A stretch of 64,000 bases of DNA from Escherichia phage B9-1. Each line of letters begins with the position of its first letter. The stretch's first letter is position 1. The notes below the pieces were generated by a model, which saw only the letters and a list, made by a program, of their open reading frames with translations, had not been told where the DNA came from and searched no databases. This document shows, piece by piece, positions 14,491-59,009 of the stretch. The translations under genes were made by a program, and so were the position numbers. The stretch is from sequence record OQ420740.1. One strand, given 5' to 3'.

Positions 14491-14736
14491 TTATAGCTCC
14501 ACTAGCAAAGTGCTCTCAAAATGCCTCTCATGCAGACCACTATAAGGAACCACTTCCACAACACCGTCGCGGATGTATGGAGTCATCATGGTGACATAAT
14601 CACCGAACGGGTTGGCATTATCACTAACCACGACCACATGCTGCCCCTCCTTGGCAGAGTGCCAGATAGATCTGCACTTCATCATGTGTTCGAGAGCGCC
14701 AGGTAAAATCTTGTTACGTTCTTTACGGGTCTTCAT
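14491..14736 (-). CDS. hypothetical small protein
   Basis: 81 aa ORF; tightly packed with neighbours. Confidence 0.5.
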   Translation of the reverse strand: MKTRKERNKILPGALEHMMKCRSIWHSAKEGQHVVVVSDNANPFGDYVTMMTPYIRDGVVEVVPYSGLHERHFESTLLVEL

Positions 14737-15182
14737 AACAGATATAGCTCCTTATGAAAGTGGGCTTTCAATTTCTCACCGAGAAACTTCTTGATACCTT
14801 CCTCTAAAGTGTTTTCGATGTAGTCCAGCTTAACTGCTTCGATAGACATATCATAGATCGCCAGCTCTAAGCTGTCAAGTCCCATCATAGCATGAACCAT
14901 AAGATTTTCATCTTCAGATACATTCAGGGGACTTCCTATAACATCTGGAGGCAGAATAGTTTCCCAATTATTCTGGGCGGTAGATCTCCCGCCATCCACC
15001 TTACGTCTCAGCTCGAATGTATTCTTAGTGTAGAACACTTCATAAGAAACGATACGACTGTCACTCTCATAATAGACGAAGTTCAAGTAGGAGCCCAGCC
15101 GTAGTCGGCAAACTTCTACCCCAAACCATTGTTTCTTATAAGAATTCAGGCTAATGCTGTCGCATTCACGTTTGCTCAACAC
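14733..15182 (-). CDS. hypothetical protein
   Basis: 149 aa ORF overlapping downstream gene by 4 nt. Confidence 0.55.
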   Translation of the reverse strand: MLSKRECDSISLNSYKKQWFGVEVCRLRLGSYLNFVYYESDSRIVSYEVFYTKNTFELRRKVDGGRSTAQNNWETILPPDVIGSPLNVSEDENLMVHAMMGLDSLELAIYDMSIEAVKLDYIENTLEEGIKKFLGEKLKAHFHKELYLL

Positions 15183-15198
15183 GGCTCTCTCCTTCTTG

Positions 15199-15432
15199 TT
15201 AATCTTCGTAAATAATGATTTCTGCTTTAGGTTTTCGTGCTTTCAGGTCCAGCTCTATCCAGTGCACCATCGCTGTTTCAAGAAAAACAGCCTGGATGCA
15301 TCCGTCTTCAGCGTGCCCTACCAGCATAACAAGATCTTCACATTCATCATCTGCATCACGGACATACAAGATCTCTCCAGATTCAAAGTCTTTCACAACC
15401 TGATTGCTGGATAATTTACGAATTTTTGCCAT
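15199..15432 (-). CDS. hypothetical small protein (distant member of the tandem 87-aa family?)
   Basis: 77 aa ORF adjacent to three tandem paralogs, similar size and charge pattern. Confidence 0.5.
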   Translation of the reverse strand: MAKIRKLSSNQVVKDFESGEILYVRDADDECEDLVMLVGHAEDGCIQAVFLETAMVHWIELDLKARKPKAEIIIYED

Positions 15433-15433
15433 A

Positions 15434-15697
15434 TCAGAAACCCTCTAAAAAGCTCTTGTAGAAAATAATCTCAGTATCCACACCAGTCACGATCTTGTCG
15501 TTCCTGATTTCATCTGTAAGATAGGTGTCAAAACGCAGCACCTGTGTGGTATTGTCACACATCCACTCGGCTGTTACCATGGCAAAAATCTTAGCATCTT
15601 CATTATCTGGTGTAAATGTCACCACCTCACCGCATTTAAACTTTTCGATAGGTTGCGTGTTAGCTTTTGGTTCTGCAATGGTGATTTTCGTGGTCAT
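15434..15697 (-). CDS. small protein, tandem paralog 1 of 3
   Basis: 87 aa; shares the G.VV...D...... V(M/A)(I/L)V motif and length with 15697..15960 and 15960..16223. Confidence 0.55.
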   Translation of the reverse strand: MTTKITIAEPKANTQPIEKFKCGEVVTFTPDNEDAKIFAMVTAEWMCDNTTQVLRFDTYLTDEIRNDKIVTGVDTEIIFYKSFLEGF

Positions 15698-15960
15698 TAT
15701 TCTCCTCCTTCTTTTGAATAGCTTGTCTCTCCAAGGATGGTAATTTTGGTGTCAAGCTCTGTAACTTTCATGTTTGGTGGCAGATCGTACAACTCATTAT
15801 TTTCTAAATCGAACCCCCATACACAATGTTCCCCTGTTTTGACAATCATAACTATGTTTTGAATGCCGTCTCCGTCACAACTTACCACGGTCCCACATGG
15901 AAAACTGTCTGCACGCTTTTTGTTCTTCACTTTAGAATTGAATACAATGCTAGTAGCCAT
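15697..15960 (-). CDS. small protein, tandem paralog 2 of 3
   Basis: 87 aa; start overlaps the stop of the upstream gene; paralogous to neighbours. Confidence 0.55.
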   Translation of the reverse strand: MATSIVFNSKVKNKKRADSFPCGTVVSCDGDGIQNIVMIVKTGEHCVWGFDLENNELYDLPPNMKVTELDTKITILGETSYSKEGGE

Positions 15961-16223
15961 TATTGTTCCTCCACCATAACTTCGCCAAGAATTTCTATGC
16001 AGGCATCCATTTCTGTAACAACCAAGGTGTGAGGTAGTTCTGCAAACACCTTTCTGAACAGGTCAAATACCCCAACATATATGTTTGCAGGATGTGATCT
16101 CACAACAAGTGCTGTATTCACATCTCCAAGTTCATCAACAAACATCACCACAGTACCTGGAGCTACTGAAGACAGATACTTCTTAGTTTTACGGTTGGAT
16201 GCAAATTTTAACTCTGTTGCCAT
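15960..16223 (-). CDS. small protein, tandem paralog 3 of 3
   Basis: 87 aa; MATELKFASNRKTKK... resembles MATSIVFNSKVKNKK... of paralog 2. Confidence 0.55.
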   Translation of the reverse strand: MATELKFASNRKTKKYLSSVAPGTVVMFVDELGDVNTALVVRSHPANIYVGVFDLFRKVFAELPHTLVVTEMDACIEILGEVMVEEQ

Positions 16224-16238
16224 AAATAATCTCCTCCT

Positions 16239-17699
16239 TTATTTAACGTACTCGATTAATTCCACAGTTCTCCCAAAGCTAGGGATATAATTTTTATTAT
16301 ACCCTTCGGTGAGAACCCATAAAGTATCGTACTTTTTCCACTTGTTGTCAACAGCCTTTTGTTCAAAGTTATGCTCAAAGTATAGGTCGGTAAGGACGAT
16401 GACATCTTTTGCATTTGGTATGTTAGCATCCAGATACTCGAACACGCAGGCGGCTGTTGTGCCCCATGTTGAGTGGACCTCATAGTTGATCATCTCATCG
16501 ATGTTACCGCGAGTGTATACTTTAACCTCTCCAACCTCGGTTGACCAACAGAACATCGTAACCTTAAACTCTTTATACAAATTGCACAACCCGGTGATCT
16601 CATTGAACATTTTCTTTAAAGTTCTTTGTGAGATCGATCCAGAAACGTCTAAAGCCACCACAATATCTATAGTGTTTTCCGGATTACGACCAGGAACAAT
16701 AACGTGCTGATTCTTGTTTATAGCTCCAACTTTTCGCATTGTGGTGGTCAAAGACCCAGATCGGCGACCCGGTTTTCTGTAGGTTAACTCAGCCTTCCTT
16801 TTAGATAACATACGTTGCTTAATAATATCTATATAATTGATTACAGGCTTGCCTCTGTTTTTGACAAACTCGCGCACCGCCTCGGGGCAACGACCTCCTG
16901 AAGCTTGCATTGCTGCTTCCAACATGTCACCAGAGTCCTGCATGGCCTGATCTTTATCCGATTGACTGATTACTGGTTGCGGCTGATCATACCCCATAGC
17001 CTTTCCAAGATCATCACTAGTGCCACCGTTCCCGCTCATGTGATCATCGGTTTGTCGTTTATCTCCTTGGGAGTTCTCTCCTTTACCGTTCTTACTTTTA
17101 CCGCTATTCTGATCTCTTTGTTTATCAAGAACTGCATAGACGTTCTCAGCAATCCATCCATGAAACTTCATGTCGCAGTAGCAACTAGCTAAGAAGCCAA
17201 AAGGCTTACCTTTTACGAACTCAGTGCTTTTCCCCTTCGGGAAGAAAACACAAGGAGGCTTGCTAAAGTCAACCACAAGACCTGTGTTGATAACGTGATC
17301 ACAAGCAATATTGAACAGTTCCGGCTCAAAGCTTTTACCACGGACCAGATGATCACAGATAATATGCCCCACCTCATGTGACAGAAGAAAGGCCACCTCT
17401 TTCACAGATTTTGGGGAATAGAAAACCTCAGCCATCTCAAACTGCTTGTCAGTCAGAGATGCTTTAAGAATGGTTTTACGCTCATCTGCCAACCCCATAA
17501 TGAACTCAGGGCTGTAGTAGATGCGTTTATGGTCTGTTGCCATAGTGGAGCACCATGTGTGGTTTTCTACGAACTGCAACCCTGACAACAGTGTGCCATA
17601 AAACGGCAGCTTTTCAAGAAGGTACATGCGAGCGGCCTGCAGCATTCGCAAGGCATCATCTTTTTGTGCGGTAATGATTTCTGAACTTCTGCTATCCAT
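16239..17699 (-). CDS. metallopeptidase-like (HExxH) + von Willebrand factor A (vWA) domain protein
   Basis: N-terminal HEVGHIICDH (HExxH) and C-terminal VALDVSGSIS (MIDAS DxSxS) match the DUF2201_N putative metallopeptidase + VWA-like architecture that partners with MoxR ATPases; start taken at ATG 17699 (SD GGAG), the track start 17720 lies inside an intergenic hairpin. Confidence 0.65.
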   Translation of the reverse strand: MDSRSSEIITAQKDDALRMLQAARMYLLEKLPFYGTLLSGLQFVENHTWCSTMATDHKRIYYSPEFIMGLADERKTILKASLTDKQFEMAEVFYSPKSVKEVAFLLSHEVGHIICDHLVRGKSFEPELFNIACDHVINTGLVVDFSKPPCVFFPKGKSTEFVKGKPFGFLASCYCDMKFHGWIAENVYAVLDKQRDQNSGKSKNGKGENSQGDKRQTDDHMSGNGGTSDDLGKAMGYDQPQPVISQSDKDQAMQDSGDMLEAAMQASGGRCPEAVREFVKNRGKPVINYIDIIKQRMLSKRKAELTYRKPGRRSGSLTTTMRKVGAINKNQHVIVPGRNPENTIDIVVALDVSGSISQRTLKKMFNEITGLCNLYKEFKVTMFCWSTEVGEVKVYTRGNIDEMINYEVHSTWGTTAACVFEYLDANIPNAKDVIVLTDLYFEHNFEQKAVDNKWKKYDTLWVLTEGYNKNYIPSFGRTVELIEYVK

Positions 17700-17711
17700 T
17701 AAAACTCCAGA

Positions 17712-17728
17712 AGGGGCCATTGGCCCCT
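17712..17728 (-). other. intergenic GC hairpin (terminator/attenuator-like)
   Basis: AGGGGCCATTGGCCCCT, same type as the 11721 terminator, between 17733..18722 and 16239..17699; only a short T-run follows on the minus strand. Confidence 0.4.
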
Positions 17729-17732
17729 GTCA

Positions 17733-18722
17733 TTATTTAACGTGCTTGAAAATACCAGCCAACTCGGTCATTGTCATGCGAGTGGTCTTCATAAGGTCTG
17801 TCATAGCCTTCTCCATGATTGGAGATACTACCATGAAGTTACCTTTGGTGAAACCTTTGTTCCAGTCGGTAACTAATAGGGGTTTAAGTCCGGCACCGAG
17901 ACGTTCACCAGTTAAAGCACAACATTTTCGAATGTATGTGCTCTTAAACTGGCTGAATGACAGATCAACTTTCATACCTGCATCGTAGAACGTCTGGCAA
18001 TAGAAAGTGTAAGCTTTGGCAATCTCAACATCGTCAGGCAGTGCAGGAACCTCTTCTGTAAGCTCTTCTTCGACCCCTTGAGGCTCTTTTTCCTCTTCGT
18101 AAGCCTGTTGCGTCATCTCTTCAATCTCCTCTACTACAGGCTCGTTTACAATGTCAGAAATGTGCTTGTTGGCTCCACGATTAGCCATGAAGTTTTTAAA
18201 ATCCTGCATTGGTGACATATCTTCCTCCCATTCTTCGTCAAAGAGTGCTAGTTTATCCTCTTCCGTTCCATATTGCAAGATGAAATCTTCAAAAGTGTAA
18301 TCACCTTTCAATTTCTCCATACGCTCTTCGCTCAGGTGGAGCATCATCTGCTGGACAATTTTTCGATCAGTTTTGTCTTTAATCAAGACTGCGGTCTTTT
18401 TATCTACCAGGCAGTCCTTTAGGGAGTTGCATCTCAATCCCACCACACAACAATTATCAACCGCATAAGGACCTTCATCATCTATCCGCTCCAGAGATGG
18501 GTAGAAAGGATTTCCCAGTCCGTTTTCATCTGTGTGCATGTCGAAAGGTATAAGGGTATAGTCGCATACTCCCTCTCCTAAAAGTTTTTTACCAAATAGG
18601 AGATATTCTTCCCATGACAGGTTGAACTCTATATCCCGTTTCCGTGCGTTATTCTGTTTGCGTCTGTATTTTTTGAGCAAGCGCTCTAACTCTTCTGGTG
18701 TATAATATTTTTCAAGATTCAT
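17733..18722 (-). CDS. hypothetical acidic protein
   Basis: ATG at 18722 with SD AAGAGA; the track start 18782 is a TTG lying inside the divergent promoter region; Glu-rich central region. Confidence 0.55.
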   Translation of the reverse strand: MNLEKYYTPEELERLLKKYRRKQNNARKRDIEFNLSWEEYLLFGKKLLGEGVCDYTLIPFDMHTDENGLGNPFYPSLERIDDEGPYAVDNCCVVGLRCNSLKDCLVDKKTAVLIKDKTDRKIVQQMMLHLSEERMEKLKGDYTFEDFILQYGTEEDKLALFDEEWEEDMSPMQDFKNFMANRGANKHISDIVNEPVVEEIEEMTQQAYEEEKEPQGVEEELTEEVPALPDDVEIAKAYTFYCQTFYDAGMKVDLSFSQFKSTYIRKCCALTGERLGAGLKPLLVTDWNKGFTKGNFMVVSPIMEKAMTDLMKTTRMTMTELAGIFKHVK

Positions 18723-18753
18723 GAGTTGTCTCTTGTTCTCTGTGGGTGGAGAA

Positions 18754-18782
18754 ATCTTACCAAGTGCCTGAGAAGATGTCAA
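18754..18782 (-). promoter_or_regulatory. sigma70-like promoter (leftward operon)
   Basis: Minus strand TTGACA, 17-bp spacer, TAAGAT, about 30 nt upstream of ATG 18722; approximate. Confidence 0.4.
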
Positions 18783-18795
18783 CCTGAAAAACGTG

Positions 18796-18824
18796 TTGAC
18801 TTTACTCTAAATCCACGATATAGT
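18796..18824 (+). promoter_or_regulatory. sigma70-like promoter (rightward block)
   Basis: TTGACT, 17-bp spacer, TATAGT, about 40 nt upstream of ATG 18865 in a divergent intergenic region. Confidence 0.5.
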
Positions 18825-18864
18825 GCACCCATTCAAAAGAAAACTAACATAGGAGCACTTACTC

Positions 18865-19764
18865 ATGACAAATCTTAACAGTTTTAGCACCAGGTGGAAA
18901 CAAGATATCACAACCAATCTCTCAGCAGGTGATATCCTTTCTGCAATTTACGAGGCTTTGGATGATAAAGCTACTTCAAAATCGGTTTGTACTAATCCGC
19001 TAATCCCTGTAGTGATGAAGGTAATTGAGCGGAGGTTGGTATCTGGGTCCGATAAGTGGACATACCTTGATAATGGAGGGCATACTTACTCCAACGGATA
19101 TGTTGATATAAAAGTGGAATACGCAGTATCATACCGCCGGAGCGGTTCTGTAACTTTCAACTTCTCTGGAGGTTTCCGATCTCTGGCAACTTCACCTTTT
19201 GTTTCCTCAGAGGAGAAGTATGAGCTGCCATTTCTTTGGATGATGGCTAACGCGACAGGAAAAACCCCCGTTAGCATCCGAGTAAAATACAACTACAACG
19301 GATCTAGTAAGATCTATGCCGAGAGTGTCTCAGCAAGTTTTTATTTTGTGATGGGGGATGGAATCCTCAAACATATAAAGATGTGCGATATGCATGATGT
19401 TATAAATGAAGTGACTGATAAGAATGTCCTAGTGAAAGACCTCAATAATTTTTATACACCTGGAGACTATTACGTCAACCGCCCACTGTGCATCTTTAAT
19501 GCCGCACACCCTTTAGGTGAGTATTTGATCGCCAATAGCGATATTGCCAATAATCGCTTCGAGGTAGCAAGAGTACAGAATGAGGTGTTGACATCTTGCA
19601 AGAGCGGTGATAAGTTTACCGAAGAAGAGATGGGTGTTTTAGAGATGATGGGATATAAGTGTAGCCTTTGGGTAGATGAGGTGTTTAATGACGGCATCTA
19701 TGGACAGGATATTTACCCACTAAAGAAGTATACTGATTCCAGTTTAATTTACGCGGGGATTTGA
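18865..19764 (+). CDS. hypothetical protein
   Basis: 299 aa ORF, SD AGGAG. Confidence 0.6.
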   Translation: MTNLNSFSTRWKQDITTNLSAGDILSAIYEALDDKATSKSVCTNPLIPVVMKVIERRLVSGSDKWTYLDNGGHTYSNGYVDIKVEYAVSYRRSGSVTFNFSGGFRSLATSPFVSSEEKYELPFLWMMANATGKTPVSIRVKYNYNGSSKIYAESVSASFYFVMGDGILKHIKMCDMHDVINEVTDKNVLVKDLNNFYTPGDYYVNRPLCIFNAAHPLGEYLIANSDIANNRFEVARVQNEVLTSCKSGDKFTEEEMGVLEMMGYKCSLWVDEVFNDGIYGQDIYPLKKYTDSSLIYAGI

Positions 19765-19766
19765 CT

Positions 19767-20039
19767 ATGATGAAGTCATGTGGTAGTGTATATTATGTTG
19801 GTGAGAATGTTCAGGCAGATAGTGTGTGGAAATCCATTAAGTCCACCACCGATGATGCCTTCTTGAGCGGATCATGTTTCCCCAATCCTGGGGACATTCT
19901 CCCTTACCCTGGGGATTTTGTTGTCAATAAGATGGACGGTTACACCGTGTGCCTGATGGTTGAAAAAATCTTTTTAGACACTAGACACAATCACCGTCTT
20001 GTGTTAAAATTTCAAGAATGTAAAATGACAGTTGCCTAA
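19767..20039 (+). CDS. hypothetical small protein
   Basis: ATG 19767 (track start TTG 19761 overlaps the previous stop). Confidence 0.5.
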   Translation: MMKSCGSVYYVGENVQADSVWKSIKSTTDDAFLSGSCFPNPGDILPYPGDFVVNKMDGYTVCLMVEKIFLDTRHNHRLVLKFQECKMTVA

Positions 20040-20051
20040 GGAGGCCTACCA

Positions 20052-20408
20052 ATGTCTAAAGTTACTTATCGTGCAGCTATTTACTGCAATGAGCAACCAA
20101 TCAATAGTGATGGTCACTGCTTTTTTAAAGAAAATCAGTTGGGCTGTATTGCCCTCCCTGATGAAGGGGAAGGTTATATGATTGCATTGACAGGGTTTGA
20201 GCCTGAAGCCTTGGAAGCCAATCTGGACTACCTGGTAGAGAAGGGTGCTGCAGACTTGGTTGCCAATGGCCTCTCCATAAGCCTTGAAGAAGTGGAGCGC
20301 TTCATGGGCAATTACCGTGTAGTGCGTGAGTTTACTGTCGAGGTGGAAACTCCAGAGTGGGGTGGTACTGAAACTAATGCTGAAGAAAAAGAAGAGGAGG
20401 CAGAATAA
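20052..20408 (+). CDS. hypothetical protein (acidic C-terminus)
   Basis: 118 aa, strong SD AAGGAGG. Confidence 0.55.
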   Translation: MSKVTYRAAIYCNEQPINSDGHCFFKENQLGCIALPDEGEGYMIALTGFEPEALEANLDYLVEKGAADLVANGLSISLEEVERFMGNYRVVREFTVEVETPEWGGTETNAEEKEEEAE

Positions 20409-20665
20409 TGAAAGTGCAAATCTTAACTAATGCCGAGAAGATGTTTATCGAAGATACGCCTTTTGAAACTGGTGAGCTACAGTTTGTATATTTTGTTGAC
20501 TTAGATAAGGTTTTTCCTGCGCTGAATCTGGGTTTGGAGAAAGTACCTTATAAAACTCTATGCCAGGTTGTCCGTGCCTTAGCGGCAGATGGAGAGTTCC
20601 ACACCTTTGAAGATATCCAGACCTATGGGTATCTTGAACTGCAACGAGAAGAAGAGGTAGACTGA
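20408..20665 (+). CDS. hypothetical small protein
   Basis: 85 aa, SD GGAGG, start overlaps upstream stop. Confidence 0.55.
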   Translation: MKVQILTNAEKMFIEDTPFETGELQFVYFVDLDKVFPALNLGLEKVPYKTLCQVVRALAADGEFHTFEDIQTYGYLELQREEEVD

Positions 20666-20667
20666 TA

Positions 20668-21048
20668 ATGGCCCAGTGGAAGACAACAGTTGACCTTCAT
20701 GATCAGTGGTTAGGACGCATAACTGAAGACGGGAAACTGGTAGAGTGGGACAACAAACATGTTAGCGAGTTGGCAAGTATTGTGGCTGGCAAGTTACGCT
20801 CCAAGTTCCCTGAACAGCTGGATCCTGATAGTTCAAAGTTCGATCCTGAGTTGGAGGATGTTGTATACTACTTCGATACCGTTGATGACTACGACGCGTG
20901 GTTTGCAGCACGGGAGCTTTACCCACAAGGCTCTGCTATGCGCAAGATGGAAGAAGATTATCCTCCGTGTGAGCAATTCAATAGTGCAATGACTTGCCTC
21001 TATGATTGGGCAGATAAGAACCTTGTCTGGATTCGGACTGCATTTTAG
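20668..21048 (+). CDS. hypothetical protein
   Basis: 126 aa ORF. Confidence 0.55.
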   Translation: MAQWKTTVDLHDQWLGRITEDGKLVEWDNKHVSELASIVAGKLRSKFPEQLDPDSSKFDPELEDVVYYFDTVDDYDAWFAARELYPQGSAMRKMEEDYPPCEQFNSAMTCLYDWADKNLVWIRTAF

Positions 21049-21092
21049 TGGGTAGGGATGGCGGCAAGGATGCTGCTTAAGGAGCAGTAGAG

Positions 21093-21362
21093 ATGTTATA
21101 CCAGCAGTACGAACTTCGTGCAGAAAAAGAATTAAATTTTGACAAAGATATTCACAGATATTATTATGGGAAAGTTAGAGGGCAAGCAAGAAAGTGTACT
21201 CCAACACTCTTTTATGCCAGCAGACGACTAGCGCCAGAAGAGGCAACAGCAGAAAGGGTTGCATATGGCTGGAGAGTTGCGTATGATATTGACAGATCCG
21301 ATGTGATGTCTGTTTTGGAAAACTTTGAAAACACTTACACACAAGTAGAGGACTTTTACTAA
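21093..21362 (+). CDS. hypothetical small protein
   Basis: 89 aa, SD AAGGAG. Confidence 0.55.
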   Translation: MLYQQYELRAEKELNFDKDIHRYYYGKVRGQARKCTPTLFYASRRLAPEEATAERVAYGWRVAYDIDRSDVMSVLENFENTYTQVEDFY

Positions 21363-22546
21363 TGTCAAGAAACGTATTCGAAAGTGGTCAAATCACTGTC
21401 CGCGAGTTGCCAGCTATTATTCAATTTGCCCAGCGTCATAACCGATCTGTCCTGATTTTAGGACCGATGGGCGTGGGGAAGAGCCAGGTGATGAAGCAGA
21501 TTGCTGATAGTATGTTCGGTGAGCGAGATGACAACCTTGTTGACGTGCGACTGTCAGATAAAGACCCTGCTGACTTATCTGGGCTACCTATCCCTGTAGA
21601 GTCGGATGGGACTACACGTACAGTGTTTGCAATTCCAGAATTTTGGCCTGCAGATCCGGACTGGAGCGGAATTATCTTTCTAGACGAGCTTACTCATGCA
21701 GATAACTACCTGCAGAAGGTTGCAATGCAAATTATGCTCGACCACAAGTGCGGCACCTATGCATTTCCTAAGGGCTCTGTTTTTGTAGCTGCAGGTAACC
21801 GTGCTACAGACGGTGCTGTTCTTTCGGCGCTCGAAGCTCCTCTAGCTAACCGCTTTATCATTGTAGAAGTTACAAGCAGTGCAGAGGTGTTTATTGAGGA
21901 CTATGCATTCCTTAATGGGGTGCACTCCTCTGTAATTGGATATCTGAAAAGAGTCCCATCAGCCATTGATAATTATGAGGCCATGGCTGAGATTAATTGT
22001 CCATCTTTTGCCACACCGCGATCTTGGGTTGCTGCATCTGACATCTTGCACGATTTTGACAGCGGTATTATTTCTGACGCTATGGCCCGTGTCCTTCTAC
22101 AAGGTGCCATTGGTCACACTGCAGCGGTAGAAATTTGGACCTACCACACCAAGAAACGAAACTTGCCAGAAATCGGTCGGATTATGGCAGGAGGCTGCAA
22201 AGAATATGTAGGTCCTAAGCAGCCAGACATCTTGTGGATTCTGGGGTCTGAAGGTTGTATCGCTATTCGTAATATGATGGAAAATGCAAGTATCTCCGAC
22301 GAAGATCTCGTCAGCTGTGTGGCAAACTTCCTTGATTTCCTTTGGGAAAATTTCAAGGATGAGAACCGAGACTTTGTATTCTCAGTCTTTATGGCGATGA
22401 TGAAACCTAACGCCTTAGGAAATGCCTTACTTATTGGTAAAGGCAGGGACAAGATCGTTGCTCAGCTGATCAAAGCATACCCAAACCTGATGAAGATTGT
22501 AAAAGAGTTTGGTGAAGAGTTTAGCGCCATTTTAGCTAAAGCTTGA
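21362..22546 (+). CDS. MoxR-type AAA+ ATPase
   Basis: 394 aa; Walker A GPMGVGKS and Walker B IIFLDELTHA in MoxR-like spacing; likely partner of the vWA protein at 16239..17699. Confidence 0.7.
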   Translation: MSRNVFESGQITVRELPAIIQFAQRHNRSVLILGPMGVGKSQVMKQIADSMFGERDDNLVDVRLSDKDPADLSGLPIPVESDGTTRTVFAIPEFWPADPDWSGIIFLDELTHADNYLQKVAMQIMLDHKCGTYAFPKGSVFVAAGNRATDGAVLSALEAPLANRFIIVEVTSSAEVFIEDYAFLNGVHSSVIGYLKRVPSAIDNYEAMAEINCPSFATPRSWVAASDILHDFDSGIISDAMARVLLQGAIGHTAAVEIWTYHTKKRNLPEIGRIMAGGCKEYVGPKQPDILWILGSEGCIAIRNMMENASISDEDLVSCVANFLDFLWENFKDENRDFVFSVFMAMMKPNALGNALLIGKGRDKIVAQLIKAYPNLMKIVKEFGEEFSAILAKA

Positions 22547-22555
22547 GGAGGTTGT

Positions 22556-22936
22556 ATGGCTAAAGTAGGTAAGCGGGGAAACTACTTGGTGGTATTGACC
22601 GAGGAGCCGGAGAAGGAGTACGAATGCAGCTCCGCTTGTGTGATCGATATCCGAGAAAAAGATGTGGATGAAATCTGGTTTAAAATACTGGACGCTTGCG
22701 ACAGCAGTGACTATTTCTTCATCTATGTCAACGATAAAGCGGGGTTCTTCCATGACGATGGGGAATTACCGTATGAAATCTATGAACTTGTAGAGGCTTG
22801 CCATCGTGGAGATGCGGAGTTGTTTGGTCTACGGCTGAAAAGCGGTAAATTCTTCTATCAAGATGAATGCATGAATCTTCACAACTTCGTAGAGGGGACT
22901 TGCAACGATGGAGAGATTTTGGCACACTACGATTAA
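22556..22936 (+). CDS. hypothetical protein
   Basis: 126 aa, SD GAGGAGG. Confidence 0.55.
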   Translation: MAKVGKRGNYLVVLTEEPEKEYECSSACVIDIREKDVDEIWFKILDACDSSDYFFIYVNDKAGFFHDDGELPYEIYELVEACHRGDAELFGLRLKSGKFFYQDECMNLHNFVEGTCNDGEILAHYD

Positions 22937-22949
22937 TTTCTAAGACACA

Positions 22950-22976
22950 CCCCGCTTCGGCGGGGATTTTCTATTT
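22950..22976 (+). terminator. rho-independent terminator
   Basis: CCCCGCTTCGGCGGGG (GC stem, TTCG loop) followed by ATTTTCTATTT. Confidence 0.65.
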
Positions 22977-22985
22977 GGAGCTATT

Positions 22986-23486
22986 GTGAAAATTAAAATC
23001 TTTGCTATTATTTTGAGCGCATTTTTATCGCTGCCTGTTGTTGCAGCACCAAAACAAAAAGTATATCACACTTGCAAGCCGTCGGATACTAAGGAAAACA
23101 TTCTAGCATGCAATATCTACAGGGAGGCTAGAGGGGATGGCACGATGGGTATGCTGGCATCCGGATTTGCCACACTAAACAGGAAATCTCACCCCAAATA
23201 CCCAGACACTATAAGAAAGATTGTCTACCAACCTAACCAGTTTTCGTGGACAAACCACGGCAAAACTTTTAAGGTGACAGAAAAAGATTCATGGGATCAC
23301 GCTAAAAGTCTTGCAAAGATGCTTCTAAAGGTCTATAATAACAACCATGTTGCATACATGGCTATGGATATAACAGGCGGAGCAACACACTACCATACAA
23401 CAAAAGTACGACCGAAATGGGCAAAAAAGATGCAGAGGACAGCTCAATTCGGGAGCCATATCTACTACAAGGAGCGCAATAAATGA
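22986..23486 (+). CDS. secreted cell-wall hydrolase (SleB/CwlJ-like, Hydrolase_2 family)
   Basis: GTG start; N-terminal signal peptide MKIKIFAIILSAFLSLPVVAAP; motifs YREARGDG ... LNR ... YQPNQFSW match the SleB-type cell-wall hydrolase signature. Confidence 0.55.
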   Translation: MKIKIFAIILSAFLSLPVVAAPKQKVYHTCKPSDTKENILACNIYREARGDGTMGMLASGFATLNRKSHPKYPDTIRKIVYQPNQFSWTNHGKTFKVTEKDSWDHAKSLAKMLLKVYNNNHVAYMAMDITGGATHYHTTKVRPKWAKKMQRTAQFGSHIYYKERNK

Positions 23487-55412: not shown

Positions 55413-55430
55413 TTTCTTAACTGAATTATC

Positions 55431-55458
55431 AAGGGGCTTAAAGGCCCCTTTCTTTTTG
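55431..55458 (+). terminator. rho-independent terminator
   Basis: AGGGGCTTAAAGGCCCCT hairpin followed by TTCTTTTTG, 20 nt after the stop at 55412. Confidence 0.7.
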
Positions 55459-56074
55459 TCTGCTCTTCTCCTACCATAAACGGCCCTACCTGGCAAGTGG
55501 AATAATTGACTAGCCATCAATCCCACACACTGTACAAATATACATATAAAATAACTATTGCATAATCTTTCACTGTGTGGTAGCAGGGCCATTTTTACCC
55601 GTTTTCTCTCCCAAAAGTGCACGTAATGCCGCTATTGCACAAATTTTAACCTGATGCACATCTCCAATATCTTGTCAACAACTAAAAATCTTTATAAGTC
55701 ATACACTTACACAACATAGAAAGCGTGTCCTACGCGAAAAATCGAGTATAACTATAGCCGCCAGATCTCAGAATTCACGTACGAACACCATTCTATAGTC
55801 TGCAAAGTATTTATTCCAACCACAGAATAACGGAATAGTCAATACCTGCATAAAATAATTATTCGTGTAAACTGCATAACATAAATCAGCTCAGGTGTCA
55901 ACATTTTTCGTAAACAGTCCGAAATTATCACGATGAGTTATCATAAACAGAGAAATCTTTAGTCGTCTAATGTTTACTGTACATTACTATACTGACTGGA
56001 ATCATTAGATGACTAAGAGAAAGATAAGAAATAATTAATAATGTAATTGTTTTACCTGTAACAATAAGGCAACT

Positions 56075-56094
56075 ATGCAAACGAATGGCATGGC
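56075..56094. repeat. 20-bp direct repeat, copy 1
   Basis: ATGCAAACGAATGGCATGGC, identical copy 213 bp downstream. Confidence 0.6.
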
Positions 56095-56213
56095 GCGACG
56101 GAGTCGCGACATAATATAAAAGCAGTAACAATCACCCCCGTGATAGTTTTTCTGCAATCTATTACTCAGATCATAGTTGCCTTGTATTTAGTTAATCATG
56201 ACATAACAAGCAA

Positions 56214-56241
56214 GGCAACTATAGATCTTCTAATAGTTGCC
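56214..56241. repeat. 28-bp palindrome
   Basis: GGCAACTAT AGATCTTCTA ATAGTTGCC: perfect 9-bp inverted arms; the same arm sequence (AGGCAACTAT / ATAGTTGCCT) also occurs at ~56066 and ~56172. Confidence 0.55.
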
Positions 56242-56287
56242 CTGCTTTTATATTATGTCATAGATTGTTAGCTTGTTAATTGTTTTC

Positions 56288-56307
56288 ATGCAAACGAATG
56301 GCATGGC
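56288..56307. repeat. 20-bp direct repeat, copy 2
   Basis: ATGCAAACGAATGGCATGGC. Confidence 0.6.
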
Positions 56308-56333
56308 TTATCATCTCTGTGTAAACTGTTCAG

Positions 56334-56359
56334 GCGTAAACAGTCTATGCGTAAACAGT
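56334..56359. repeat. tandem 11-bp iterons (GCGTAAACAGT x2; third copy at 56653-56663)
   Basis: GCGTAAACAGT at 56334-56344 and 56349-56359, preceded by inverted partial TGTAAACTGTT; third copy at 56653. Confidence 0.55.
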
Positions 56360-57866
56360 GAGATATGGAATAGTAACAGCCGTTATTGTGTCATATTGTG
56401 TGACATTGTGTCCGGTGTCTGGTGTCCAGTGTGTCAGACAAGTTTTTCTCCTCTTTGTCAAGTGCTGCATGAAAAATTTACAAACTGGTATGGTAGCATT
56501 TTTGCGGCCCTGTTTACATTCAGGAATGTATGTATAATCCTTGTTGTGTGGGCGTTTAGACGTCTGGACGGTCAGAAGTCTGCAGGTCAATATCTAATCT
56601 ATTGGTTGCTAACTATATCCCACACAAATAGTAAGAAATATAATTGTTATATGCGTAAACAGTAACCCATGTTATCAATCCCTGCATGTATCGCCAGTGG
56701 TGCGCATAATGGGTATTATGTTAAATTGCCCGTAATGATAACCATTCTCACAATGATAGGTATTCTCATTCACTCCCACAAGATAGATTGCAAATGTTGT
56801 GCCACTGTGTGAACGGCCTGGCCTATTAATTTGCCTCACTGCCTCGATATTTGAGAATTATTATAAAAATGAGAAGTATTCCCATTCCGTCCGCCTGGCA
56901 GCACTCCTGTAGGACAGGCACAAAATCGGGGTATAACTGGACCTGTTCAGATATTTCTGGCTGACTCTTCAGGCCTGTGTGGGAAAAGCCAACCTCTCCG
57001 GCGGCGGGGAGGGGTCAATTAAAAAATTTACGTGGTGTATGAAGCGCTCTTCAGGTAAGGCAGGTATTATGGGATGAAACCCTCTTCAGATGATGATATT
57101 TGTGGGTGTGATATTTGCTGGAAAGCCAGATATGACGGGACTCCCGGCAGGGGTGGGGTAGTACAGACAGGGAAAATGTGGGAATGTGATGGAGTAAATT
57201 GATCAGGTAGGTAGGATATGGAATATGTTACAAGTATGTTAAATATGGAGGTAGGATATTTGTAAGATTTGTGTGTAAAATCAAATACTTAAGTGGTGTT
57301 GTGGTATTTTCTATAAATAATTCAAGTTTAATAGGTGATATTTGTCTCCATCCACTTTGTGTGGTAAACAGATTCTAATTGAATTGGTTTACAAGTGTAT
57401 ATAAAGTATACAAATTAAAGATATAAGAAACCCCCCTCCCCCTTCGGCTACCATTCACCTTTTCCTCTGACTGGTACTTAAACACTTATTCAGACTCTTC
57501 AGGTTATCACCCATATACTATATGGCAGTGACTGGTGTCCTCCGGCCCCTCTTTCGTCACCCGTCCGCTTCGCCATGCTAATGCCATAGCCAAATGTTCG
57601 GTTGTTCACCCTGTTCACTCAGGTGTATCTCCATACCCCTTCAAACCGAAGAGAACAGAAAACCCGAATTACTCGGTAAAAGAAAAGAGAAGAACTTAAT
57701 TTTATCAAGATAGGCAAGAATGTCAAGGGATGACTGCTCACTAAACAAGCAAACAGTCATGTGTGGTGGGTAAGTAACTGTGTTGGTAGGAAATTTAGTT
57801 GAAAGATGTTATAGGTGCCTCCAGAACCTTAGCTGGGCAGCTAAACCTGCAAAGCAGACTTGTGTG

Positions 57867-58709: not shown

Positions 58710-59009
58710 CTATACCCATGAAGGCTTGTCTAGGTTTGAGTAACTAAAAGGTGTCAAAAGGTGACTGTCAAAATCTTTCAAACTCTCCAGATCTTTTTCC
58801 TCGTCTTGACACCATCTGTGCCTACATTTATTGTTGTAGTGCATGGAGTGCATAGCGTTCTGCAACTTAACAGGTACAAGGGATTCAGGAGTAGATAGAA
58901 TTGTTGGGTATGCCAGGACTATCTCAAACAATGGAAACACATCGAAACTGAAGTCTATTTCTGCTGAGGTTGCTGGCATATAGGAGTATTTAGCTGTCGT
59001 TGTAGACAT
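58710..59009 (-). CDS. hypothetical protein
   Basis: ATG 59009 with SD GAGGTGG (track start 59021 is GTG); 99 aa. Confidence 0.5.
   Translation of the reverse strand: MSTTTAKYSYMPATSAEIDFSFDVFPLFEIVLAYPTILSTPESLVPVKLQNAMHSMHYNNKCRHRWCQDEEKDLESLKDFDSHLLTPFSYSNLDKPSWV

Follow-up and report, generated by a model that had tools for sequence, protein, structure and literature searches.

The closest described relatives of the gene pair studied here are gp24, an AAA ATPase, and gp25, a vWFA protein, of phage N4 (Schitoviridae). They belong to the set of 14 core genes of N4-like phages and are expressed as middle transcripts, and both proteins of our locus are their end-to-end homologs. A MoxR AAA+ / metallopeptidase-vWA 'chaperone-cochaperone pair' of the same architecture was described in group 2.2 jumbo phages (Iyer et al. 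2021, Viruses 13:63), and both proteins have homologs in RaK2-type jumbo phages. Among viral MoxR/vWA pairs, biochemical data exist only for p618/p892 from the virus ATV (Acidianus two-tailed virus), in which the two proteins bind each other and p892 stimulates ATPase activity. Bacteria encode the MoxR/VWA remodelling complexes NorQ-NorD and CbbQ-CbbO. A MoxR-vWA core engaged in conflict is also found in the vWA-MoxR ternary systems of multicellular bacteria, where occasional vWA proteins carry a fused metallopeptidase (Kaur et al. 2020, eLife).

The window analysed here is a stretch of 64,000 nucleotides from Escherichia phage B9-1 (OQ420740.1). The window shares 99.3% identity with Escherichia phage vB_EcoM-ECP26 of the genus Vequintavirus (rV5-like), which agrees with the earlier view that the pair is encoded by a phage. 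We found the ATPase gene and its partner gene on opposite strands with 3663 nt (~3.66 kb) between them, matching the ~3.7 kb estimated before. The orthologs of the ATPase are rV5 gp4, bas54_0063, and N4 gp24, and those of the partner are rV5 gp12/13, bas54_0055, and N4 gp25. Gene 4 of rV5 has been labelled "MoxR ATPase" since 2013. Both genes carry earlier annotation and this kind of gene pair is already known; the original prediction assumed more novelty than the pair has.

Table 1. Features of the locus, with positions in the window
Feature	Position	Strand	Description
Conserved third gene	14733..15182	-	149 aa, phrog_6790; BLASTP to GAP31_034, E=1.4e-9
Array of four small ORFs	15199..16223	-	87/87/87/77 aa; between partner and third gene
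DUF2201_N + vWA partner gene	16239..17699	-	ORF, 486 aa
vWA domain, complete MIDAS	16242..16682	-	VWA fold
MIDAS D351-x-S353-x-S355 (DVSGS)	16635..16649	-	with T414 (16458..16460) and D438 (16386..16388)
Basic motif RKPGRR	16761..16778	-	immediately before vWA domain; family consensus YRRPxRR; R312 invariant
Gly/Ser/Lys/Asp-rich loop	17016..17102	-	residues 200-228, N-terminal domain; low confidence, pLDDT <50
N130-x-A132-x-D134-x-x-x-N138	17286..17312	-	helix after HExxH helix; invariant columns
Putative zinc-binding active-site motif HEVGHIICDH (HExxHxxxxH)	17349..17378	-	H108, E109, H112, H117 invariant in 12 lineages
GC-rich hairpin AGGGGCC-AAT-GGCCCCT	17712..17728	-	RNA fold -18 kcal/mol, z=-2.1
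Srd-like 'anti-sigma factor' gene	17733..18722	-	first gene of minus-strand unit, directly upstream of partner
Back-to-back sigma70-like promoters	18754..18824		divergent intergenic region; consensus scan and sequence
Minus-strand promoter	18782..18754	-	TTGACA-17-TAAGAT, extended -10 TG
Plus-strand promoter	18796..18824	+	TTGACT-17-TATAGT
Strong sigma70-like site	21139..21167	+	TTGACA-17-TATTAT; 11/12 matches, consensus scan only
MoxR-class AAA+ ATPase gene	21362..22546	+	ORF, 394 aa
Walker A GPMGVGKS	21461..21484	+	G37, G39, K40, S41 invariant across family
Walker B IIFLDE	21671..21688	+	D108, E109 invariant
AGNR motif	21791..21802	+	N146 putative sensor 1; R147 invariant
R164, R220	21851..21853, 22019..22021	+	invariant; candidate arginine finger / sensor 2
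Terminator-like hairpin CCCCGC-TTCG-GCGGGG	22950..22965	+	followed by T-run; after gene downstream of ATPase; consensus scan only

The ATPase and its DUF2201_N/vWA partner

The ATPase matched phrog_1297 with E=3e-110 and aligned with N4 gp24 by hhalign (probability 99.9%, E=1e-35). Both Walker motifs, N146/R147, R164, and R220 show little or no variation among 38 family members, and the individual roles proposed for N146, R164, and R220 are tentative readings of these columns. The window ATPase lies below the gathering scores of all Pfam AAA families (AAA_5, 17.0 bits; cut-off 22) and matches bpMoxR weakly (16 bits, cut-off 27), so the MoxR assignment is transitive and structural. We found AAA_3 or AAA_5 at E<=1e-3 in none of 23 rV5-type members and in all 15 members of the sister subfamily. 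These sister-subfamily relatives are 33-36% identical to the window ATPase (E ~1e-45) and carry Pfam AAA_3/AAA_5/bpMoxR. Among PDB sequences, the best matches of the family profile were Midasin AAA modules (E=7e-11).

The AlphaFold model of the ATPase (pLDDT 82.7) was compared with known structures using Foldseek. The best 15 matches were all NorQ/CbbQ (CbbQ2), including NorQ-NorD(VWA) complexes, with E=1e-8 to 3e-7 and target TM-scores of 0.57-0.66. The predicted model also places beta-hairpins at residues 75-90 and ~129-134, the positions expected for the MoxR helix-2 insert and pre-sensor-1 hairpin. Taken together, the sequence comparisons and the model support a divergent MoxR-class AAA+ protein rather than a member of another AAA+ clade. 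The MoxR-like identity first proposed is thus backed by the Pfam domains of relatives, the Midasin profile matches, and the NorQ/CbbQ structures, although the direct AAA_5/MoxR profile match was sub-threshold.

The partner protein matched Pfam DUF2201_N (E=1.7e-28, 100.4 bits, cut-off 23.2) and the VWA-like DUF2201 (E=4e-11, 43.5 bits, cut-off 26.4), and both domains, whose motifs are all invariant, were detected in all 27 partner-family members. It aligned with N4 gp25 by hhalign (probability 100%, E=2e-41), and its PHROG label 'HNH endonuclease' is demonstrably wrong. The HExxH and vWA MIDAS motifs of the original prediction are present, and the Pfam matches, which exceed the curated cut-offs, support them. 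Two outcomes had been set beforehand as counter-evidence, a different AAA+ clade for the ATPase and a lack of profile support for these motifs; both were looked for and neither was found. The longest partner ORF reaches 17720. The start at 17699 is favoured by a GGAG ribosome-binding site and the adjacent hairpin, and is also used in GenBank relatives.

The N-terminal domain profile matched only M48 peptidases in the PDB (HtpX, Ste24, BepA), aligned on the HExxH helix at non-significant E-values of 0.18-1.2, and Peptidase_M48 gave weak matches in 9 of 27 family members. With the AlphaFold model (pLDDT 80.2), no zincin appeared among the best 50-60 structural matches, which were all VWA domains, and none of these listed matches to solved structures covered the N-terminal domain. 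The invariant N130, A132, D134, and N138 may provide further metal or substrate ligands. The loop rich in Gly, Ser, Lys, and Asp differs in length among lineages. By analogy with the NorD 'finger', the RKPGRR motif is a candidate ATPase-contacting element; no NorD-like 'finger' was identified in the predicted vWA model of the partner.

VWA_CoxE, which pairs with the MoxR ATPase CoxD, was matched by 11 of 27 partner-family members. Together with the NorQ and CbbQ structures nearest to the ATPase, this would fit a chaperone that matures an enzyme of phage or host, or inserts its metal, as in NorQD/cNOR, CoxDE/CO dehydrogenase, and CbbQO/Rubisco. The pair also recurs beside nucleotide-metabolism genes, such as those for thymidylate synthase and dCTP deaminase, and the DS-28 phenotype described below would then arise indirectly from a poorly matured enzyme. 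We regard this explanation as quite unlikely. An invariant HExxHxxxxH domain stands where NorD and CbbO have N-terminal domains specific to their clients, loss of the genes carries no fitness cost on K-12, and no single metalloenzyme gene adjoins the pair in all lineages examined.

Genomic arrangement and neighbouring genes

The ATPase and partner genes are adjacent and on the same strand in 68 of 70 informative IMG/VR loci, as well as in N4, RaK2, CR9, LTH01, and the L100 contig, and the usual order is ATPase, then partner. The pair is present in ~700-800 phage records (812 and 674 for the two proteins), and host-genus counts run parallel. The two proteins also diverge in parallel (r=0.90, Mantel 0/2000), and the window phage encodes the vWA/MIDAS partner in the same genome as the ATPase. 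These window genes are very probably a cognate MoxR/zincin-vWA pair, a reading to which the VWA_CoxE matches of the partner family also lend support, and the predicted pairing finds its footing in the adjacency seen in the IMG/VR loci and isolated phages. The neighbourhood of the pair consists of replication, nucleotide-metabolism, and rII genes in N4, RaK2, IMG/VR contigs, and the window.

The opposite-strand layout is common to four Vequintavirinae genera (Vequintavirus, Seunavirus, Henunavirus, and Mydovirus), and the adjacent order is kept in Certrevirus and LTH01. This split is a derived, old rearrangement. It would have left both genes beside the same bidirectional promoter region with their partnership unbroken. 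Every catalytic and MIDAS residue is kept in both genes in all four split genera. Gene order is typical of the N4 gp24/gp25 module and is no part of protein identity.

The two genes belong to two divergent, non-late, sigma70-type transcription units, with back-to-back promoters in the intergenic region (Table 1). A strong sigma70-like site is located 195 nt upstream of the ATPase start, within an 89-aa ORF (21093..21362). On the minus strand, the GC-rich hairpin begins 4 nt past the stop codon of the Srd-like gene, directly before the ribosome-binding site of the partner, and judging from its sequence it is possibly an attenuator or stabiliser. The position of the Srd-like gene is constant in all four split genera.

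The third gene is linked by a similarity chain to its equivalents in pEp, LTH01, and CR9, and its place in other Vequintavirinae genera is immediately downstream of the partner gene. The intervening array was first described as 4-5 tandemly duplicated ~87-aa proteins. We found four ORFs, of which 15960..16223 and 15697..15960 are clear paralogs (38% identity, E=4e-12) and 15434..15697 is probably a distant one (hhalign E=7e-5; score reached by 0/100 shuffles). The remaining ORF, 15199..15432, is unsupported as a paralog, with 19/100 shuffles reaching its score. The array is an accessory Vequintavirus-specific insertion of varying copy number outside the conserved module. No VMAP, beta-propeller, or FtsH Pfam domain was detected in the neighbouring ORFs between 13.9 and 25.5 kb.

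Host-dependent phenotype and proposed role

The HIDEN-SEQ study (2025 preprint) compared transposon insertions in phage Bas54 on K-12 and on E. coli CFE311. Gene order and lengths in Bas54 equal those of the window. On K-12, 60 of 64 TA sites were hit in bas54_0063 (ATPase) and 81 of 86 in bas54_0055 (partner), indicating that both genes are non-essential there. From K-12 to CFE311, ATPase insertions fell from 148.7 to 0.0 (log2FC -7.23, q=0) and partner insertions from 219.7 to 47.2 (log2FC -2.20, q=0.009, supplementary table); these figures come from a preprint sheet that is mislabelled (tab 'CFE303', console line '311'). The flanking genes 0053, 0054, 0056-0062, and 0064 were unchanged, among them the small-ORF orthologs bas54_0053 and bas54_0054 and the Srd-like ortholog bas54_0056 (log2FC -0.08), which show no CFE311 phenotype. 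For the third-gene ortholog bas54_0051, log2FC was -2.28 (p=0.028, q=0.195).

The ATPase knockout plaques on K-12 and shows sensitivity to DS-28, a cloned defence system of two genes. Only the ATPase and the unrelated 99-aa bas54_0140 were validated against DS-28, and the partner is absent from the preprint text. CFE311 is unlike K-12 in many ways, so the partner depletion need not stem from DS-28. The role of the pair in a virus, originally called not obvious, is no longer entirely obscure, as the ATPase is needed on CFE311 and against DS-28 according to the preprint.

The loss of the ATPase is complete and the partner depletion is mild, ~4.6-fold, so either the ATPase clearly has some action of its own or the partner is only auxiliary. 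Taken further, the ATPase would hardly need the zincin-vWA protein for counter-defence and might, for instance, use the bas54_0140 product as adaptor or client; the split would then reflect functional uncoupling, and the partner would have a separate or minor role. The unequal depletion, the limits of the DS-28 validation, and the loss of co-transcription in four genera are consistent with this idea. We nevertheless consider it improbable, as both genes are kept with intact catalytic and MIDAS residues in the split genera and diverge in parallel, and the partner is significantly depleted on CFE311 where its immediate neighbours are not. To our knowledge, no MoxR ATPase acts without a vWA protein or other adaptor.

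The same insertion data bear on the idea of a chaperone for virion assembly that is also a processing protease. The phage withstands saturating transposon insertion in either gene, and without the ATPase it still forms plaques on K-12, so neither gene is needed for infectious virions there. Both lie in non-late transcription units, and rV5 genes 1-26 have no virion mass-spectrometry evidence. Such a role was put forward for jumbo phages by Iyer et al. (2021). It would find an analogy in ATV, where p618 (MoxR) binds p892 (vWA) and tail proteins, and roseophage RPP1 has some virion-protein genes close to its gp24/25 homologs. The PHROG of the third gene is also labelled 'tail protein', but PHROG labels in this region were wrong for the partner. 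For rV5-like phages, a virion-assembly role is strongly disfavoured and very unlikely.

Our best explanation is that the pair is the rV5-lineage version of the N4 gp24/gp25 module, working as a counter-defence remodelling or proteolysis machine (probability roughly 0.55). For the pair as a machine directed against host defence or otherwise at the host, the odds are slightly better than even; that it works by proteolysis of a client is more tentative and falls short of an even chance. The proposed mechanism draws on NorQ-NorD, CbbQ-CbbO, and Rea1. By this analogy, the ATPase would assemble into a hexameric ring, onto which a single partner molecule docks by way of its vWA domain and the adjacent basic segment, and the MIDAS metal would grip an acidic residue of the client protein. 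ATP-driven movement of the partner would then remodel the client, and the zincin domain would cleave it or be positioned or activated for cleavage. Most likely, the client would be a component of host immunity, or else a phage factor required to neutralise one.

The core status of N4 gp24/gp25 suggests a role wider than countering one E. coli defence system. A more specific form, in which the ATPase and its unlinked partner, possibly with the third gene product, seize a host immune protein by the MIDAS and dismantle or cleave it, is speculative and on balance unlikely. If it held, the N4 gp24/gp25 family, with thousands of members and core status in N4-like, rV5-like, and several jumbo phages, would be a broad unrecognised class of enzymatic anti-defence systems, and DS-28 would be its first known target.

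Comparison with known systems

The ternary conflict systems are host-side and have VMAP, a beta-propeller, or FtsH as third component, none of which was detected beside the phage genes; the window ATPase also stays below the bpMoxR cut-off. The ATV pair, compared by description only, belongs to an archaeal virus, and p892 has no peptidase domain. Its p618 is a major virion protein, unlike rV5 gp4 and gp12, which were not detected in virions. NorQ-NorD and CbbQ-CbbO share 16-21% sequence identity with the phage pair. Their clients are respiratory or carbon-fixation enzymes, and the N-terminal domains of NorD and CbbO are unrelated and lack the peptidase motif.

Virion assembly was proposed for a pair found in jumbo phages, whereas the phage of the window has a genome of 137 kb and the results from Bas54 indicate instead a role that is dispensable and dependent on the host. 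Unlike the window genes, N4 gp24 and gp25 are adjacent and co-directional with the ATPase upstream, and encode proteins of 352 and 380 aa. The N4 and window pairs share the conserved Walker motifs, HExxHxxxxH, RPxRR, and DxSGS, and both are non-late and located near rIIA/rIIB.

Layout of the locus

The B9-1 window belongs to an rV5-like E. coli myophage. Positions 15000..23000 share 99.3% identity with Escherichia phage vB_EcoM-ECP26 (Vequintavirus), and about 120 further records are 93-95% identical to this interval. We also found 16 records under the name 'Campylobacter phage' (MG0656xx, host given as C. jejuni) whose sequence here matches E. coli rV5-like phages at 93-99% identity, and their host attribution looks doubtful.

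The original prediction, a MoxR-type ATPase and a metallopeptidase-vWA partner split between the two strands, described a real feature and interpreted it essentially correctly. Both genes and the four small ORFs that it named are present, and the predicted distance of ~3.7 kb between the opposite-strand genes was measured as 3663 nt. The longest ORF of the partner extends to 17720; a GGAG ribosome-binding site and the GenBank annotations favour the start at 17699.

Features of the ATPase-partner locus and of two distal regions in the window
Feature	Position	Strand	Remarks
Third gene	14733..15182	-	ortholog bas54_0051
Small ORF array	15199..16223	-	four ORFs
Small ORF	15199..15432	-	not supported as paralog
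Small ORF	15434..15697	-	probable remote paralog
Small ORF	15697..15960	-	clear paralog
Small ORF	15960..16223	-	clear paralog
Partner (DUF2201_N + vWA)	16239..17699	-	486 aa; ortholog bas54_0055
GC-rich hairpin AGGGGCC-AAT-GGCCCCT	17712..17728	-	between Srd-like stop codon and partner ribosome-binding site
Srd-like 'anti-sigma factor' gene	17733..18722	-	ortholog bas54_0056
Sigma70-like promoter	18782..18754	-	consensus scan; back-to-back with plus-strand site
Sigma70-like promoter	18796..18824	+	consensus scan; back-to-back with minus-strand site
First gene of ATPase-side unit	18865..19764	+	
89-aa ORF	21093..21362		phrog_13164
MoxR-class ATPase	21362..22546	+	394 aa; ortholog bas54_0063
Non-coding region, ~2.4 kb	~55413..57844		between oppositely transcribed genes; 88-97% conserved with Bas52
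99-aa ORFan	58713..59009	-	phrog_12072; no Pfam match; 92% identical to bas52_0137

The ATPase and partner genes belong to two transcription units diverging from 18722/18865. Bidirectional promoters were independently reported at the same place, between genes 10 and 11, in the rV5 genome paper, which described the two arms as units '11-26' and '10-1-238-164' and the late genes as 27-66. With a local fold of -18 kcal/mol (z=-2.1), the hairpin upstream of the partner is a candidate attenuator or stabiliser of the partner mRNA; a terminator is annotated there in some GenBank relatives. In all four genera with the split layout, the first gene of the ATPase-side unit is the counterpart of the same window gene. 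This gene is labelled 'putative alpha 1-3 fucosyltransferase' in GenBank relatives, and its GAP31 equivalent 'thymidylate kinase' in RefSeq; no Pfam or NCBIfam match backs either label.

Identity of the ATPase and its partner

Searched alone, the ATPase fell under every Pfam AAA-family cut-off (AAA_5, 17.0 bits versus 22; bpMoxR, 16 versus 27), and a single-sequence PDB search gave matches at the P-loop level only (ClpB, ClpC, p97), which are uninformative for the clade. For these two reasons, the MoxR call needed testing. NCBIfam and PADLOC searches found nothing significant for either the ATPase or the partner.

We found that the ATPase is 33-36% identical (E ~1e-45) to a large set of ~360-aa proteins, in which Pfam finds AAA_3, the model of the MoxR family, together with AAA_5 and in some cases bpMoxR. 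The best PDB sequence matches of a profile built from 38 family members were the AAA modules of Midasin (E=7e-11). The 15 best solved-structure matches of the AlphaFold model (pLDDT 82.7, pTM 0.76) were NorQ, including NorQ-NorD(VWA) complexes, and the Rubisco activase CbbQ2, all of which are MoxR proteins. The model has beta-hairpins at the positions expected in this clade for the helix-2 insert and the pre-sensor-1 hairpin, and Walker A, Walker B, N146/R147, R164 and R220 are invariant in the family. Taken together, the transitive, profile and structural matches place the protein in the MoxR clade, and it is best described as a divergent MoxR-class ATPase. A homolog on a 578-kb jumbo-phage-like contig (L006, 4529..5926) carries a ~100-aa insertion at the helix-2 insert position. 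Loss of its Walker A lysine was considered and ruled out, the Walker A variant being GPPGISKS.

Profile searches also back the HExxH and vWA motifs proposed for the partner, which matched DUF2201_N ('putative metallopeptidase', E=1.7e-28) and DUF2201 ('VWA-like', E=4e-11) in Pfam. Both domains were found in 27/27 aligned relatives, and 11 of these 27 also matched VWA_CoxE, the partner of the MoxR ATPase CoxD. The N-terminal HExxHxxxxH is kept across 12 lineages that span rV5-like phages, N4, RaK2 and metagenomic contigs. Some family members gave weakly supported M48 and SprT matches, and seven non-significant PDB matches of the N-terminal domain were all M48 proteases, aligned at the active-site helix. 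Two fold searches with the full partner model returned only VWA domains, with no zincin among the matches listed. Because of the HExxHxxxxH motif, it is well founded to regard the N-terminal domain as a putative metallopeptidase.

In the original rV5 sequence, the partner gene appears as a 441-aa ORF (12) and an overlapping 81-aa ORF (13). Since close relatives all have a single 486-aa ORF, a frameshift or sequencing error in the 2013 rV5 record is probably behind this arrangement. Three PHROG labels at the locus are questionable and have spread into GenBank and RefSeq. The 'HNH endonuclease' of phrog_1314 is the partner, with its putative zincin and vWA domains, the label is unsupported, and even N4 gp25 carries it in RefSeq; the 'ATPase' label of phrog_13164 is unsupported, its 89-aa ORF having no P-loop; and no evidence supports the 'tail protein' label of phrog_6790 on the third gene.

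Conservation of the pair and origin of the split

N4 gp24 and gp25 are end-to-end homologs of the ATPase and the partner (hhalign E=1e-35 and 2e-41). N4-like phages share 14 core genes, gp24 and gp25 among them; in N4 itself the two are middle transcripts, with their function listed as unknown. Of 50,697 phage records searched by tblastn, 812 contain the ATPase and 674 the partner, and the counts per host genus run closely in parallel; the positive records include rV5-like, N4-like, RaK2/GAP32-type and other jumbo phages, Bacillus phage G and cyanophage S-TIM5. At E<=1e-10, an exhaustive profile search put the partner family at 19,179 cluster representatives. Of the 80 top-ranked IMG/VR loci with an ATPase gene, 10 break off too near it to be judged, and in 68 of the 70 informative loci the partner lies downstream on the same strand within 610 nt. 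The same adjacent order was found in N4, RaK2, an N4-like contig, Certrevirus CR9 and phage LTH01. This adjacency and the parallel host-genus counts support the proposed MoxR/vWA pairing. We find that rV5 gp4/gp12, N4 gp24/gp25 and the jumbo-phage pair are one module, among the most widely conserved phage modules lacking a known function.

When 185,579 species genomes were scanned with the ATPase alignment, just 4 loci emerged, each on a MAG contig of <=27 kb. On a MAG contig (GCA_045600625.1, 1496..16807), an ATPase-DUF2201 pair adjoins an AAA protein, a large SNF2-like helicase and an M50-like protein, along with a metallophosphatase, a Pkinase/PP2C/VWA triad and a JAB protein. These surroundings look like those of a conflict island and suggest that the pair also occurs in cellular versions.

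Seunavirus (GAP31/PVP-SE1), Henunavirus and Mydovirus share the opposite-strand layout, and their arms are syntenic. Comparison with the outgroups shows the adjacent order to be the ancestral one; the split goes back to one old rearrangement within Vequintavirinae, which placed the two genes on either side of the bidirectional promoter region. All catalytic residues of both proteins were retained after the split. The two proteins diverge in parallel (mirror-tree r=0.90, Mantel 0/2000), a correlation which shows that they are inherited together but not that they bind each other.

The small ORFs were predicted to be 4-5 tandem paralogs. Tandem paralogy is clear for the two ORFs nearest the partner (38% identity, E=4e-12), and the count was too high: the next ORF is a probable remote paralog (hhalign E=7e-5, a score reached by 0/100 shuffles), and a shuffle test gave no support for paralogy of 15199..15432 with the others. 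The small ORFs were confined to the 117 Vequintavirus records, and the second copy is present in 43/117 and absent from 74/117, including rV5 itself, FV3 and V18. In other genera, a gene for a ~125-aa protein lies directly downstream of the partner. We rejected the small ORFs as its homologs; its window counterpart is the third gene (E=1.4e-9 to GAP31_034), which travels with the partner within Vequintavirinae. Because of this correspondence, the small-ORF array is a genus-specific accessory insertion between the partner and the third gene, outside the module.

Function and comparison with known systems

The 2013 rV5 paper gave gene 4 the annotation 'MoxR - ATPase', classed the DUF2201_N-containing product of gene 12 as conserved hypothetical, and reported virion mass-spectrometry evidence for none of genes 1-26. 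Iyer et al. proposed a virion-assembly role for the phage pair by analogy with ATV p618/p892. Mutagenesis of Vequintavirus Bas54 was described in the HIDEN-SEQ 2025 preprint (bioRxiv 10.1101/2025.11.20.689424). Orthology was taken from its annotation table, where gene order and lengths are exactly as in the window: 0055, metallopeptidase (1461 nt, -); 0056, anti-sigma; and 0063, MoxR ATPase (1185 nt, +), followed by a cell wall hydrolase and then rIIA/B. On K-12, both the partner (81/86 TA sites struck) and the ATPase (60/64) were non-essential. According to the preprint, DS-28, which E. coli CFE311 carries as a predicted defence system of two genes, specifically affected knockouts of bas54_0063 and of bas54_0140, a 99-aa ORFan, both of which were sensitive to it.

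In supplementary file 9, sheet 'Data S6' is titled resampling_K-12_vs_CFE303, and its console line and data-file names give CFE311; we read it as K-12 versus CFE311. Its values recur later in the file, and tab label and content seem swapped or duplicated. In this comparison, the ATPase was strongly depleted (log2FC -7.23, q=0), and the partner fell from 219.7 to 47.2 (log2FC -2.20, q=0.009). The values for the third gene were log2FC -2.28, p=0.028 and q=0.195. The Srd-like gene, the small ORFs 0053/0054 and the ATPase-flanking genes 0057-0062 and 0064 were unchanged; a third small ORF, 0052, showed a non-significant log2FC of -1.32. The preprint text available to us neither discusses the partner co-depletion nor links the ATPase phenotype to the partner. 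We consider an essential morphogenetic role of the pair disfavoured; the data support a host-dependent counter-defence role of the ATPase, with a weaker but specific contribution of the partner. Since its phenotype is much stronger, the ATPase must be capable of acting without the partner as well, or with another adaptor. The CRISPRi-ART genome-wide screens included no rV5-like or N4-like phage.

The second gene needed against DS-28, bas54_0140 (log2FC -5.48 on CFE311), corresponds to the window's 99-aa ORFan by position, as the sixth gene past the long non-coding gap, and by length (300 nt). Its product is a possible client or adaptor for the ATPase. In the preprint, the Bas54 equivalent of the window's ~2.4-kb non-coding region is reported to lack transposon insertions, and an important function is suggested for it. 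The DNA helicase gene bas54_0068, directly after rIIB, was conditionally essential on CFE311 (log2FC -6.32, q=0), a dependence not discussed in the available preprint text.

In the bacterial NorQ-NorD complex, a single VWA protein plugs the pore of the MoxR hexamer, its MIDAS binds acidic client residues, and ATP hydrolysis drives a remodelling of the adaptor that is passed on to the client. By analogy, the phage ATPase and partner may follow the same logic, with RKPGRR, a conserved basic segment directly before the vWA domain, as a candidate ATPase contact. In contrast to NorD, the phage partner has a putative zincin domain in place of the client-specific N-terminal domain, and cleavage might follow once the client, either a host immune protein or a factor of the phage, has been remodelled.

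The pair is already annotated in GenBank relatives, its kind has been described, and a first phenotype, that of the ATPase against DS-28, is now published. Our additions are incremental: the rV5, N4 and jumbo-phage pairs form a single module, the split arose secondarily and its occurrence in the different genera has been mapped, the small ORFs now count as an accessory insertion, a third gene is conserved, and the partner is co-depleted in published supplementary data. Rather than revealing a new kind of system, these points sharpen hypotheses on a known one.
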